Shown here: positions 27,719 through 31,120 of the stretch, one piece after another
Layout of the letters: each line of letters starts with the position of its first letter
How positions within the stretch are numbered: position 1 is the stretch's first letter
Source: an uncultured bacterium
GTDB taxonomy: Bacteria > T1Sed10-126 > CAZEBV01
NCBI GenBank assembly: GCA_964510695.1
Contig: CAZEBV010000001.1
Span: forward strand, 1-44,996
Direction of reading: 5' to 3'
DNA length: 44,996 nt
The notes under the pieces: model-generated
What the model saw: the letters and a program-made list of their open reading frames with translations, nothing else
Told to the model about the DNA's origin: nothing
Database searches by the model: none
Translations under genes and position numbers: made by a program

Positions 27719-27768
27719 TCTCGTTGCCAACGAGAAGGTCGGGGGTTCAAATCCCCTCACCCGCTCCA
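27719..27768 (+). other. attP core: 3' 50 nt of a tRNA-Gly(GCC), from the anticodon stem to CCA
   Basis: TCTCG-TTGCCAA-CGAGA anticodon arm (GCC), AGGTC variable loop, GGGGG-TTCAAAT-CCCCT T-arm, CACCCGC-T-CCA acceptor end. No D-arm or 5' acceptor strand upstream. Integrase lies 450 bp away. Confidence 0.75.
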
Positions 27769-27878: not shown

Positions 27879-28085
27879 CTACCCCTGGAGTTCAAGCTCC
27901 TGTTTCAGGATTCGTTGCCAGGGCTTCGAGGGGGTGGCGTATCCGGTGAGCCACTTGCTAATTCGAGGCTGGTCTGTGTCGAGCTGGTCGGCAAGCTCCT
28001 CCTGGGTGAGACCGTTTTCGTCCATGTAATCTTGGATGGCTTCGCTCCAGTCGATCTCGTCGGCCATCGTGGACTCCGTTGACAT
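27879..28085 (-). CDS. Cro/CI-type HTH protein (Cro-like regulator or excision factor)
   Basis: NGLTQEELADQLDTDQPRISKWLTG HTH. GGGAGG SD. Divergent from the integrase gene. Confidence 0.7.
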   Translation of the reverse strand: MSTESTMADEIDWSEAIQDYMDENGLTQEELADQLDTDQPRISKWLTGYATPSKPWQRILKQELELQG

Positions 28086-28118: not shown

Positions 28119-28147
28119 ATTCTTAACCGAATATCCCTTGACGTCAA
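28119..28147 (-). promoter_or_regulatory. Candidate promoter for the Cro-like gene
   Basis: On the - strand: TTGACG (28147..28142), 17 bp, AAGAAT (or 16 bp, TAAGAA). Shares the palindrome TTGACGTCAA with P-int. Confidence 0.35.
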
Positions 28148-28166
28148 CCGGGGGACCGCCTATACA
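28138..28166 (+). promoter_or_regulatory. Candidate integrase-cassette promoter
   Basis: TTGACG (28138..28143), 17 bp, TATACA (28161..28166). Followed by the half-site TTTACGCGC (28169..28177). Confidence 0.45.
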
Positions 28167-28216
28167 CTTTTACGCGCTGTTTTGTGGGGGTTTCCGGGTG
28201 GGACTCGGTGATCGCC

Positions 28217-29338
28217 ATGAAGGGAAGCATCCAGCAGATCGAGCGTAAGACCAAGACCGTCCACCGTGCCCGCATCGACGTCCCGTCGCCGGACGAGGAC
28301 CGAAAGCAGATCAGCAAGACCTTCGACGAGGAGGGGGATGCGACGACGTGGCTGATCCAGAAGAACCACGAGATCAGCACGGGGACGCTGGTGACGCCCT
28401 CCGAGATGTCGATGAAGCAGTACCTCCAGAAGTGGATGGAGGATGAGAGGGACGCGATTCGCCCCAAGACCCACCAGAAGCGCCAGTGGGCCATGAACCA
28501 CATCCTGCCCGCCCTGGGGCACGTGGAGGTCGGGGATCTTACGCCCTACCACCTACAGACGCTTTACCAGGACAGGCTGGAGGACCTCGCGCCCAGCTCG
28601 GTGAAGAACCTGCACGAGATCCTGCACAACGCCCTGCGAAACGCCTGCCGGCTGGAGATCATCGCGGACAACCCGGCGAAGAACGTGTCCCCGCCCGCGA
28701 AGCCGGACCCGGATTTCACGGTCCTCGACGGCGAGCAGATCGAACGCTACCTGTCAGCCGCCCGGGGCCGGCGGTACTACCCCGTGCTTCTGACGCTCGT
28801 GATGACCGGCCTCCGGCGCGGCGAGGCGCTGGGGCTACGGTGGGAGGACGTCTCGCTGGATGAGGCGAGCCTGAGCGTGCGTAAGACGCTGGGGCGCACC
28901 GACGAGGGGCTGGGGTTGGGCGATGTGAAGACCGCCTCCAGCCGGCGCTCTGTGGCGCTCATGGAGGCCAACGTAAAGGCGCTTCGGGACTGGAAACAGC
29001 GCCAGCTTCAGGAGCGTTTGAACCACCCGGACCTGGCCGGGCGCTCCGAGCTGGTCTATACGACCTCGGAGGGTAATCCCGTCCACCCTCGAAGCCTGCT
29101 GAGGTCCCACAACAAGGTCGTCGATCAGGCCGACGTCCCCGACGTCACGATCCACGACCTGCGCCACACGCACGCCACGCAGATGCTCCGGAATGGGACC
29201 CACCCGAAGGTCGTCCAGGAGCGGCTGGGACACTCCCGGATCGAGGTCACGATGGACACCTACAGCCACGTTTTGCCCGGGATGCAGGAGGACGCGGTGG
29301 AGGCGCTTGAACAGTCGATGGGGGCGGATACGGTATGA
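28217..29338 (+). CDS. int: Tyrosine integrase
   Basis: Catalytic-region motifs LLTLVMTGLRRGE, HDLRHTHAT, LGHSRIEVTMDTYSH. Start set at ATG 28217 (MKGSIQQIERK). Confidence 0.9.
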   Translation: MKGSIQQIERKTKTVHRARIDVPSPDEDRKQISKTFDEEGDATTWLIQKNHEISTGTLVTPSEMSMKQYLQKWMEDERDAIRPKTHQKRQWAMNHILPALGHVEVGDLTPYHLQTLYQDRLEDLAPSSVKNLHEILHNALRNACRLEIIADNPAKNVSPPAKPDPDFTVLDGEQIERYLSAARGRRYYPVLLTLVMTGLRRGEALGLRWEDVSLDEASLSVRKTLGRTDEGLGLGDVKTASSRRSVALMEANVKALRDWKQRQLQERLNHPDLAGRSELVYTTSEGNPVHPRSLLRSHNKVVDQADVPDVTIHDLRHTHATQMLRNGTHPKVVQERLGHSRIEVTMDTYSHVLPGMQEDAVEALEQSMGADTV

Positions 29339-29565
29339 TGGCCCCGTTCAATCCCGAGGATCCGGACCCCGAAACCATCCTGGAGCAGATGGGGCTCACC
29401 GAGGAGGATTTGGCGTTCACGATCACCACGAACCCCTGGTACGTGAAGGCCCAGAAGGACGCCGAACGGCCGAGGTCCTACGGATGGGAGGAGGGCATCA
29501 TCTTTTGCTGTCGGTTCGTGAGCATGACGGGTGGGACGAAAATCACCCGGATGTACATCAACTGA
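29335..29565 (+). CDS. Hypothetical protein
   Basis: 76 aa. ATGA overlap with the integrase stop. Confidence 0.5.
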   Translation: MMAPFNPEDPDPETILEQMGLTEEDLAFTITTNPWYVKAQKDAERPRSYGWEEGIIFCCRFVSMTGGTKITRMYIN

Positions 29566-29575
29566 GGGGGACGGG

Positions 29576-30034
29576 ATGGCCCTGATCCAGTGTCCGGAGT
29601 GCGGCGAGGACGTCTCGGAGAATGCGGAGGCCTGCCCAAACTGCGGGGAGCCCATTAACGGCGGATCGGATGGGCCAAGTGCCGGCCAGGCCATCGGCGC
29701 CTGCGGATGCATCGTCGCCCTGGCCTGTGCCGGCCTGGTCTTTGTGCTCTGGATGGTTTCTGTGGCCGACCGCGTCGATCTGGGAGCTGACGCCGACGGG
29801 GCCGCGGATGTCTGCCGGCAATTCGTGGACGACTGGTTCAAAGATGGCTACCAGACCTCGTACCCCGACGGGATGGAAGACGATGCTTCGAGAGTGGGGA
29901 AGGGCCGGTACCGTGTTAGCTCATCGGTCGAGGCCGTCACCGAGGGCGGCCGCAGGCTACAGAAACGGTTTGACTGCGTCGTTCAGCACCAAGAAGGCAA
30001 GACCTGGAACCTGGTGGATCTCGACGTAAATTAA
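29576..30034 (+). CDS. Zinc-ribbon / single-TM / extracytoplasmic-domain protein
   Basis: CPECG..CPNCG ribbon, TM AIGACGCIVALACAGLVFVLWMV, then a ~90-aa C-domain. Start at ATG 29576 with GAGGGGGA SD. Confidence 0.7.
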   Translation: MALIQCPECGEDVSENAEACPNCGEPINGGSDGPSAGQAIGACGCIVALACAGLVFVLWMVSVADRVDLGADADGAADVCRQFVDDWFKDGYQTSYPDGMEDDASRVGKGRYRVSSSVEAVTEGGRRLQKRFDCVVQHQEGKTWNLVDLDVN

Positions 30035-30047
30035 GGGGGGCAGAATC

Positions 30048-30452
30048 GTGGAGAACAACGCCGCCGCACTCATAGCGCTCATTTACCTTATGGGCATCTT
30101 CGGGATGTATGTGCTCTTTTCGATCCTCGCCGGGGTCTACTACAGCAGCAAGGAAGGCGCCTTCTGGCGGGCCTTTCTGATCTCGCTGTTGTTCTCGCCG
30201 CTCATCGGGTTCGTCTTTGCCCTGGCATCGGACCCGGTCGATCGGAAACCATGCCCCGCCTGTGCTGAGAAAATCCGGGCGGAGGCCTCGAAGTGCAAAC
30301 ACTGCGGGGAGCAGCTCGAGGCGGCGCCGGCCGAGGAGGAGCCCGAAACGAAGACGCTATCGGAGAGTCAGGCCAGAACCAGCACCGTGGCGATGGTCTT
30401 CTGGGGGGTCGGGGGCGTTATTGTTCTCCTCTTGATCCTGTCGTCTCTCTGA
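30048..30452 (+). CDS. Multi-TM membrane protein with an internal zinc ribbon
   Basis: Two to three N-terminal TM segments, CPACAEKI..CKHCG, and a C-terminal TM. GTG start after GGGGGG. Confidence 0.7.
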   Translation: MENNAAALIALIYLMGIFGMYVLFSILAGVYYSSKEGAFWRAFLISLLFSPLIGFVFALASDPVDRKPCPACAEKIRAEASKCKHCGEQLEAAPAEEEPETKTLSESQARTSTVAMVFWGVGGVIVLLLILSSL

Positions 30453-30504
30453 GGTTAGCCCCTCCGGCACCGATTAAAGGCGACCTCGACGCGCACCTGG
30501 TGGG

Positions 30505-30975
30505 TCATCGGTTCTTGTTGACGCCCTTCCCCTTCTCCCAGCTGCGCATGCCCCCCAGCCCGAGCATCCCGAGCAGGACGGGCATCAGGGTCTCCATCTT
30601 CGGCTGCGGGAGCTGCTCGAGGGGGATCTCCACGCCGCCCACCTTCACAGCGAACAGCAGGAACGGGTACAGGACGGTCCCGTAGGCCAGCGCGGTCCCG
30701 CAGATCCACCCGATCGCCGGCCGCCATCCGGCGATGAACATGGACTCGCTCTTGGCCTCCTGGAGGTTGATGTCCGTTTGGGCCATCGCCTCGGCGTGGG
30801 TCTTGGCGAGTCGCTCGAGCTCCCCCTTCTGGCGAAGCTCGGCCAGCTTCCGCTTCGCCTCGCGCTTGGCCTCCGGATCCTCTGGAAGCACCCGCTCGAG
30901 GACTTCATCCACGGGCCCCCCTTCCCCGACGAACGCCTCCACGACGCCGCCGGTCAGCATGCTGGCGATGTTCAT
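30505..30975 (-). CDS. Holin (3-TM, GTA-release-type family)
   Basis: SMFIAGWRPAIGWICGTALAYGTVLYPFLL signature plus further TM segments. Start at ATG 30975 with GGAGG SD. Confidence 0.6.
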   Translation of the reverse strand: MNIASMLTGGVVEAFVGEGGPVDEVLERVLPEDPEAKREAKRKLAELRQKGELERLAKTHAEAMAQTDINLQEAKSESMFIAGWRPAIGWICGTALAYGTVLYPFLLFAVKVGGVEIPLEQLPQPKMETLMPVLLGMLGLGGMRSWEKGKGVNKNR

Positions 30976-30979
30976 GGCG

Positions 30980-31120
30980 TCAGAACCTCCCCTCCCGGTC
31001 GTTCGGATCAAAGGACTTCATGAACCGATGAAACGCCCAGAGGCCCACGACAACACAGGCCGAGACCATCCCGATCGTCCCCAGCACGATCAGCGTCCAC
31101 TTCACGATCAGATGGACCAT
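30980..31120 (-). CDS. 46-aa single-TM protein (holin partner or spanin-like)
   Basis: MVHLIVKWTLIVLGTIGMVSACVVVGLWAF. GAGGGG SD directly after the palindrome at 31132. Below the ORF-track cut-off. Confidence 0.45.
   Translation of the reverse strand: MVHLIVKWTLIVLGTIGMVSACVVVGLWAFHRFMKSFDPNDREGRF

Follow-up and report, generated by a model that had tools for sequence, protein, structure and literature searches.

The DNA analysed here, referred to as the window, is a whole contig of 44,996 bp (CAZEBV010000001.1; 66% G+C) from an uncultured bacterium and carries a phage genome with nearly all of its genes on the - strand. We focused on a cassette of three small + strand genes (A76, B152 and C134) that lies directly downstream of the tyrosine integrase gene (int), and that an earlier note had put forward as a candidate exclusion or defence module expressed by the prophage. 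Gene calls based on the G+C content of third codon positions (GC3) over the whole window agreed with the note that int and the three cassette genes are the only genes on the + strand; two further + strand candidates proved to be shadows of - strand genes. All the details of that description that we checked by sequence, open reading frame and composition analyses were correct, including the ATGA at 29335-29338 in which the A76 start codon overlaps the int stop codon and the convergence of the cassette on the lysis genes, the next gene being a holin. The region is organised as follows:

28217..29338, + strand: tyrosine integrase (int), first gene of the + strand unit (Pfam Phage_integrase, E 9e-26)
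29335..29565, + strand: A76, acidic orphan protein of 76 aa, ATGA overlap on the int stop codon
29576..30034, + strand: B152, with a zinc ribbon (29591-29647), a transmembrane (TM) helix (about 29690-29767) and a predicted periplasmic NTF2/cystatin-like domain (29768-30031)
30048..30452, + strand: C134, with a TM hairpin (30057-30239), a predicted cytoplasmic zinc ribbon (30252-30308), an acidic linker and a third TM segment (30375-30449)
30453..30504, no strand: 52-nt spacer between the convergent units, no convincing intrinsic terminator
30505..31011, - strand: holin, last gene of the - strand train (GTA_holin_3TM, E 5e-18; phrog_3427 holin, E 4e-32)

The start codon of B152 lies 10 nt past the A76 stop with a Shine-Dalgarno run (GGGGGA) in front of it, and C134 starts with a GTG located 13 nt past the B152 stop that is preceded by a similar run (GGGGGG). 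The GC3 values of the three genes (A76, 0.86; B152, 0.76; C134, 0.81) and the G+C content of their second codon positions (0.44-0.46) match those of the phage's other genes, and the competing overlapping frames have GC3 values of 0.48-0.68. The sole close relative of the cassette, a 1,738-bp Logan contig (SRR34348080) hereafter called L002, revealed purifying selection on A76 and C134, with ratios of nonsynonymous to synonymous substitution rates (dN/dS) of 0.20 and 0.10, respectively. The ratio of 0.20 indicates that A76 is protein-coding. A consensus scan identified no promoter-like site inside the int-A76-B152-C134 unit, in which there is no room for an internal promoter. We infer that the four genes form one transcription unit, and the cassette would then be co-transcribed with int and expressed in the lysogen, as the earlier note had assumed. 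A moron in the strict sense is transcribed independently, from its own promoter to its own terminator, and is expressed by the repressed prophage; we saw no internal promoter-like site and no convincing terminator, and A76, B152 and C134 look like part of the int operon. The region between C134 and the holin gene also contains no convincing terminator (fold z-scores of 0.37 and 0.05): the terminator scan of the 52-nt spacer returned one weak terminator-like site only, and 38 nt of the spacer align to L002 at 84% identity. Transcripts of the int operon that read through the spacer would run antisense to the holin gene and could dampen lysis-gene expression in the lysogen.

The layout previously read in B152 was confirmed: a CPECG...CPNCG ribbon (residues 6-24), a single hydrophobic stretch and an 88-aa C-terminal domain. 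The ribbon scored above the Pfam cut-offs for Zn_ribbon_3 (PF13248; 30.0 vs 27 bits) and Zn_Ribbon_1 (PF13240; 28.4 vs 25 bits), and its four cysteines (C6, C9, C20 and C23) are invariant in an alignment of 58 B152 relatives. An AlphaFold2 (AF2) model made with these relatives reached a mean predicted local distance difference test (pLDDT) score of 86 and agrees in layout with the hydropathy profile. It places the ribbon at residues 3-24 and the TM helix at 43-64 (about 39-64 by hydropathy), joined by a linker that is poorly ordered; the outside domain follows, with a helix (73-87) on five antiparallel strands (93-151). C81 and C135 of this domain align with conserved cysteine columns of the family. 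The N-terminus consists of the ribbon and then the TM helix, with no signal peptide or lipobox. Because the metagenome-assembled genome (MAG) to which the contig belongs (2.26 Mb, 89.6% complete) encodes BamA, the host is presumed to be diderm, and the outside domain would be located in the periplasm. Pfam covered the outside domain with no model in any of the 58 family members, and a profile search of PDB sequences matched ribbons only and left this domain unmatched. Foldseek comparisons of the model to the PDB returned generic NTF2/cystatin-like folds (PBP2a N-terminal domain, CaMKII hub and cystatin; best E, 0.03). The best domain-level matches in BFVD were a Gordonia phage 'lipoprotein' (E 8e-5) and a 177-aa protein of a Cutibacterium acnes phage (PHL199M00; E 8.5e-4). 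We discarded the BFVD match ranked first, a 476-aa 'RING finger family 1' protein (E 2.5e-5), for its poor overlay (root-mean-square deviation of 20.7).

Word-based searches gave two hits each for B152 and C134, with only one relative of B152 among them, and none for A76 beyond itself; blastn of the cassette region against phages gave no match, and tblastn of B152 and C134 against phages matched ribbons only. By contrast, an exhaustive HMMER (phmmer) search of 1.84 billion representatives recovered 2,472 proteins at E <=1e-3 for B152, including dozens that match it in full length over a single stretch (146-172 aa, 25-38% identity, E 1e-8 to 1e-18). Phrog_13160 matches B152 residues 20-151 (E 3e-5) and 56 of the 58 relatives. 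In the alignment, the outside domain follows the pattern A..C..FV..RLKAPSTAxFP...G.G.Y.V.SYVDAQNxFGAxIR..F.C.V...W.L..L., and the family signature VDAQNxFGAxxR is defined by D, N, G and R residues that are at least 90% conserved. B152 reads VEAVTEGGRRLQ at this position and, having kept only the G, lacks the signature; the B homologue of L002, its closest relative, keeps VEAQNSFGATLR. B152 thus belongs, as a divergent member that has retained the fold and the cysteine pair, to a large family that is uncharacterised. The family seems to have neither a name nor a Pfam model, and a literature search combining zinc ribbon, prophage and superinfection exclusion found no papers on it. Searches with back-translated motifs gave 418 confirmed B-family loci for IMG/VR and 306 for a set of contigs with one genome per species, the latter from Gemmatimonadota, Acidobacteriota, Pseudomonadota, Actinomycetota, Chloroflexota, Planctomycetota and the candidate phyla radiation (CPR), among many phyla. 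The best 160 loci, reduced to 146 non-redundant sequences, were tallied by anchor: 48 have a ribbon and a TM helix, 69 a plain TM helix or signal peptide and 18 a lipobox. Since the outside domain is constant and the anchor varies, the outside domain would be the working part of these proteins and the ribbon an optional one. Interchangeable anchors would be as expected for an extracytoplasmic effector.

The genes of this family have three recurrent homes in phage genomes: next to int, within operons of repressor genes and immediately ahead of the tape-measure gene. A tyrosine integrase lies within 1 kb of the B-family gene in 8 of the 11 non-redundant viral loci that have an integrase within 7 kb (about 1.6 of 11 expected; binomial p 2e-5). 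Seven of these eight genes are co-oriented with the integrase, and they include a B-like gene that follows int after 80 nt, in the order of the window. The immediate neighbours in 72 viral loci include helix-turn-helix (HTH) or CI-type regulators (8-11 loci), Peptidase_S24 (3) and recombinases (4), and a tape-measure gene directly follows the B-family gene in about 10-15 of the 72. According to the deposited annotations of two phage isolates, the B-family gene (81-536) ends the S24-repressor operon of Leeuwenhoekiella phage vB_LaeS_Arctus_1 and, in Microcystis phage MinS1, lies 4 nt before the integrase gene and divergent from HTH genes. For B152, the positional argument of the earlier note, that its place behind int is typical of exclusion genes, is thus upheld by relatives that recur beside tyrosine integrases, in a repressor operon and directly before an integrase. 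Seven IMG/VR loci (L039, L051, L057, L058, L062, L080 and L088) form a subfamily with a two-TM anchor and no ribbon; each of these genes directly precedes a same-strand gene of about 1,100 aa that is probably one of the tape-measure genes counted above, which would put the subfamily in the moron slot of HK97 gp15.

Members of the family are also encoded in chromosomes. The MAG has three full-length paralogues of B152 with the same ribbon, TM helix and outside domain order, and all three, like B152, lack the VDAQN..G..R signature:

contig C96, 4023-4538: B152 paralogue (L020)
contig C50, 9166-9651: B152 paralogue (L018)
contig C9, 9439-9930: B152 paralogue (L019)

One of them has a major facilitator superfamily (MFS) transporter gene on one side and a gene for a CpaF-type ATPase on the other. 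Identity between B152 and these paralogues is only 26-27%, and a recent capture from the host was rejected. The earlier note had raised homology to housekeeping membrane proteins as a result that would speak against it; chromosomal homologues do exist, three in this MAG, but none is known as a housekeeping protein.

Comparison with L002 provided additional insights into how the cassette evolves. In this contig, int is reduced to its last 20 or so codons, which are fused to unrelated upstream DNA. The A76 copy has a TAG in place of Trp35 and is otherwise 88% identical, an extra gene for a 68-aa ribbon-TM protein separates A from B, the B homologue is 50% identical and the C homologue, at 89% identity, ends before the third TM segment. 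A low-GC lipoprotein gene follows C, and the contig looks like a prophage remnant that has retained its cargo. The retention of B and C next to an int stub shows, at least in this probable remnant, that the cargo can outlive the integrase. Divergence is uneven along the cassette. A76, C134 and the ribbon of B152 have dN values of about 0.07 and dS values of 0.4-1.1, whereas the TM helix and outside domain of B152 have a dN of 0.44-0.74, saturated dS and no nucleotide match. This contrast shows that, in this one pair, the segment encoding the TM helix and outside domain has been replaced rather than having diverged slowly. A specificity determinant, which the outside domain may be, would be expected to show such segment replacement.

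The description of C134 as a polytopic protein with an internal ribbon was also accurate: hydrophobic stretches span residues 4-32, 38-64 and 110-134, and a CPAC...CKHCG ribbon lies at 69-87. The ribbon follows the pattern CPxCAExI..A..C.HCG and precedes an acidic linker and the third TM segment; it scored 24.2 bits with Zn_ribbon_3, below the 27-bit cut-off, with all four cysteines present. If the N-terminus is inside, the ribbon would be cytoplasmic. Pfam has no model for the TM hairpin, and the few homologues that we recovered (89-122 aa, 29-46% identity) cover only the core (residues 17-94); a metagenome scan with C134 added one distant relative only. C134 does not qualify as a holin, because the match to Phage_holin_3_6 is below threshold (17.7 vs 28.4 bits) and its gene, though adjacent to that of a bona fide holin, lies on the strand opposite to the lytic one. 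The proposal that the two ribbon proteins make one module did not hold up, as this phage and L002 are the only places in which B-like and C-like genes were seen together. An obligate pairing was likewise rejected, the B-type domain being absent near C-like genes elsewhere. In L189, a lone C-like gene stands on the opposite strand among tail genes, and in L200 a C-like gene ends an operon of int, a CI-like HTH gene and a lipoprotein gene; the L200 lipoprotein is not a relative of B152 (hhalign probability of 0.2). Because C-like genes occur in the L189 and L200 contexts without a B-type domain, C134, too, is lysogeny-module or moron-type cargo, independent of B152.

Ribbon-membrane genes also occur in tandem arrays, with three such genes in L002, two in L120 and three in L192. 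The L192 array (19-1755 of a locus at 93-2522 of contig C223), from a low G+C genome of the same order as the MAG, consists of consecutive zinc-ribbon genes for a protein of 205 aa that carries a ribbon at each end, one of 302 aa with a ribbon and multiple TM segments and an 89-aa C-like hairpin-ribbon protein. In another phage (L004-L006; Logan SRR30756390-93; 5531-6465 of L004), an opposite-strand island near an S24 repressor gene carries ribbon-containing cargo in three genes, which encode a 109-aa protein, a 109-aa ribbon protein and an 85-aa protein.

A76 yielded fewer clues. The protein has an isoelectric point (pI) of 4.5, no family match in the Pfam, PADLOC, PHROGs and NCBIfam scans and no homologue among the searched sequences except the L002 copy, and its AF2 model was uninformative (pLDDT of 41). 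An assignment as excisionase was unsupported, the protein being acidic and without an HTH match.

Upstream of the cassette, the window contains additional features of a lysogeny module:

27719..27768, + strand: attP core, 3' part of a tRNA (T-arm and acceptor end), read from the sequence
27879..28085, - strand: 68-aa HTH_3 (Cro/CI-type) gene, divergent from int (Pfam HTH_3, E 7e-9)
28138..28166, + strand: candidate promoter of the int operon (TTGACG, 17 nt, TATACA), read by eye

The tRNA-derived attP core marks the phage as one that integrates. We found no second copy of the 32-nt 3' part of the tRNA (attB) in the MAG, and its occurrence solely on the phage contig means that the link to the host rests on binning alone. 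Either the tRNA that carries attB is missing from the assembly or the phage contig was binned with a bacterium other than its host. The promoter at 28138..28166 is a tentative reading, since the consensus scan gives only an overlapping - strand site. The integrase also matched SAM-like N-terminal domains (Pfam) and has a GC3 of 0.89; its start was placed at the ATG at 28217, and a GTG at 28184 is likewise open.

The earlier note had recognised neither ribbon protein as a described defence family, and our scan of PADLOC-DB 2.0 bears this out: A76 had no match, and the best matches of B152 (E 0.055) and C134 (E 0.0024) involved the ribbon only. Indeed, no Pfam, NCBIfam or PADLOC family fits the cassette proteins beyond their ribbons. 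Their design and positions can, however, be compared to those of known proteins. [quoted passage not shown] Like gp15, the B family comprises small, inner-membrane-anchored phage cargo with chromosomal homologues and in about 10-15 of the 72 viral loci occupies the slot before the tape-measure gene; unlike gp15, B152 is encoded behind int and combines a zinc ribbon with a folded outside domain of 88 aa. Exclusion has been demonstrated for gp15 and is a proposal for B152, and the Pfam and PHROGs scans detected no similarity of A76, B152 or C134 to gp15/YebO. B152 shares its position and its design of an anchor plus an outside domain with Ltp of Streptococcus phage TP-J34 (and with the lactococcal Sie2009 type). 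Ltp is a lysogeny-module gene product that is tethered outside the membrane, where it binds the tape-measure protein and so prevents DNA injection (PMC3952083, PMC11480721). Yet Ltp is a lipoprotein of a phage with a Gram-positive host, whereas B152 has a ribbon and TM anchor, an NTF2/cystatin-like domain and a diderm host, and B152 matched no Ltp-type family in the Pfam, PADLOC, PHROGs and NCBIfam scans. In gp41 of C. acnes phages, a helix connects the membrane anchor at the N-terminus to a C-terminal domain of helix plus sheet, the nearest structures of which are cystatin and VirB8, and a role in superinfection resistance has been proposed for gp41 but not proven (PMC11480721). Gp41 belongs to the same fold class as the B152 model but has no ribbon and no sequence similarity to B152; the PHL199M00 protein matched in BFVD may be another protein than gp41. 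TcaA of Staphylococcus aureus shares with B152 the order of N-terminal zinc ribbon, TM segment and extracellular domain. The NCBIfam TcaA model matched the ribbon-to-TM part of C134 (E 7e-8; 31.7 bits vs a cut-off of 550) and, weakly, B152; these matches comprise ribbon and TM segment only, and the outside domains are unrelated. For C134, the T4 Imm and P22 SieA type of small polytopic inner-membrane phage proteins, which act on incoming DNA (PMC10883804), offers a similar phage-encoded design. C134 differs in its zinc ribbon, which proteins of this type are not known to have. No match for its TM hairpin was found, including to the Pfam family Imm_superinfect.

On this evidence, the best reading of A76, B152 and C134 is as accessory cargo of the lysogeny module rather than as one machine. 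We rank first, with a probability of about 0.35, that the cargo blocks incoming phage genomes at the level of the envelope, because the positions of these genes match those of proven exclusion proteins (HK97 gp15 and Ltp). In this mechanism, the cytoplasmic ribbon and single TM helix of B152 would tether the NTF2/cystatin-like domain so that, in the diderm host, it lies in the periplasm and acts there as a protein-binding module and the working part of the protein. Its most likely target would be a component through which incoming phages bring their DNA across the envelope, such as the tape-measure/ejection complex or an envelope protein that this complex needs, and binding would exclude superinfecting relatives. 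C134 would be a separate small inner-membrane protein that acts at the same barrier through its hairpin and cytoplasmic ribbon. Extending this idea, we tentatively suggest that the B family may be a large unrecognised class of superinfection-exclusion proteins whose outside domain binds the tape-measure/ejection complex of siphoviruses. Such binding would explain both the three recurrent homes and the swapping of domains between near-identical cassettes. Several observations weigh against genome blocking. The cassette has no PADLOC match, all the PHROGs that match the B family are of 'unknown function', and the structural matches of the outside domain are weak, including those at domain level in BFVD (8e-5 to 9e-4). 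The evidence for domain replacement comes from a single sequence pair, and B152 has lost three near-invariant residues of the signature (D/N/R to E/T/Q). Chromosomal members of the family are common and have no phage genes alongside, many of the 306 genome loci have unremarkable neighbours, and the three MAG paralogues sit among metabolic and transport genes. Furthermore, an integrase operon can stay silent in a stable lysogen.

The chromosomal members suggest a doubtful but serious alternative, namely that the cassette is cargo for lysogenic conversion or envelope physiology, captured from hosts and unrelated to defence. The B152 domain would then bind or inhibit a host enzyme, transporter or part of a secretion system or pilus and alter the envelope of the lysogen. 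The non-phage contexts of the MAG paralogues, the many genome loci with neighbours unlinked to phages and the lack of a defence-family match are all consistent with this explanation, as is a fold class typical of varied inhibitors and binding modules. It leaves unexplained, however, why B-family genes cluster at integrase, repressor and tape-measure genes and why the outside domain is replaced between near-identical cassettes, and the low identity of B152 to the MAG paralogues speaks against recent capture.

Expression with int, following infection or induction, would also raise the possibility that the cassette serves the phage's own cycle by aiding the establishment of lysogeny, excision or the timing of lysis, with A76 as a directionality factor, for example, or C134 as a holin-like protein or antiholin beside the lysis genes. 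Xis genes often overlap int, as A76 does at the int stop codon, and the sub-threshold holin match of C134 and the lack of a terminator before the holin gene, which would make read-through antisense to it, point in the same direction. Yet we consider this unlikely: A76 is acidic and has neither an HTH match nor a confident fold, a holin gene and two genes for small TM proteins are already present on the lytic strand, L002 retains B and C without an integrase and without the third TM segment of C, and other phages carry B-family genes in repressor operons. Least probable among the explanations that we considered is abortive infection, in which the cytoplasmic ribbons of B152, C134 or both would sense a component of an infecting phage and the TM segments would then, like RexB, depolarise the membrane through oligomerisation. 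A lysogeny operon that encodes small proteins with several TM segments and a cytoplasmic sensor domain would suit such a system, and so would the recurring clusters of ribbon-membrane genes in L002, L120 and L192. But the ribbon is dispensable, about two thirds of the B family having none, the third TM segment of C is missing in the closest relative, and no PADLOC component of abortive infection (Abi) systems is similar to the cassette proteins.

Membrane-protein cargo in a lysogeny operon is of a familiar kind; the concrete lead that can be tested is an outside domain with modular anchors that recurs in three slots of phage genomes. Some caution is warranted, because zinc-ribbon membrane genes are common and heterogeneous in lysogeny modules and the ribbon is here an accessory anchor. 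To our knowledge, exclusion proteins that block injection have been described in only a few model phages, and each of them belongs to a small family of its own. If the outside domain does exclude incoming phages, the B family would be a phylum-spanning exclusion family with hundreds of natural variants and exchangeable anchors, and the rules by which such proteins recognise tape-measure proteins or receptors would become testable by comparison.

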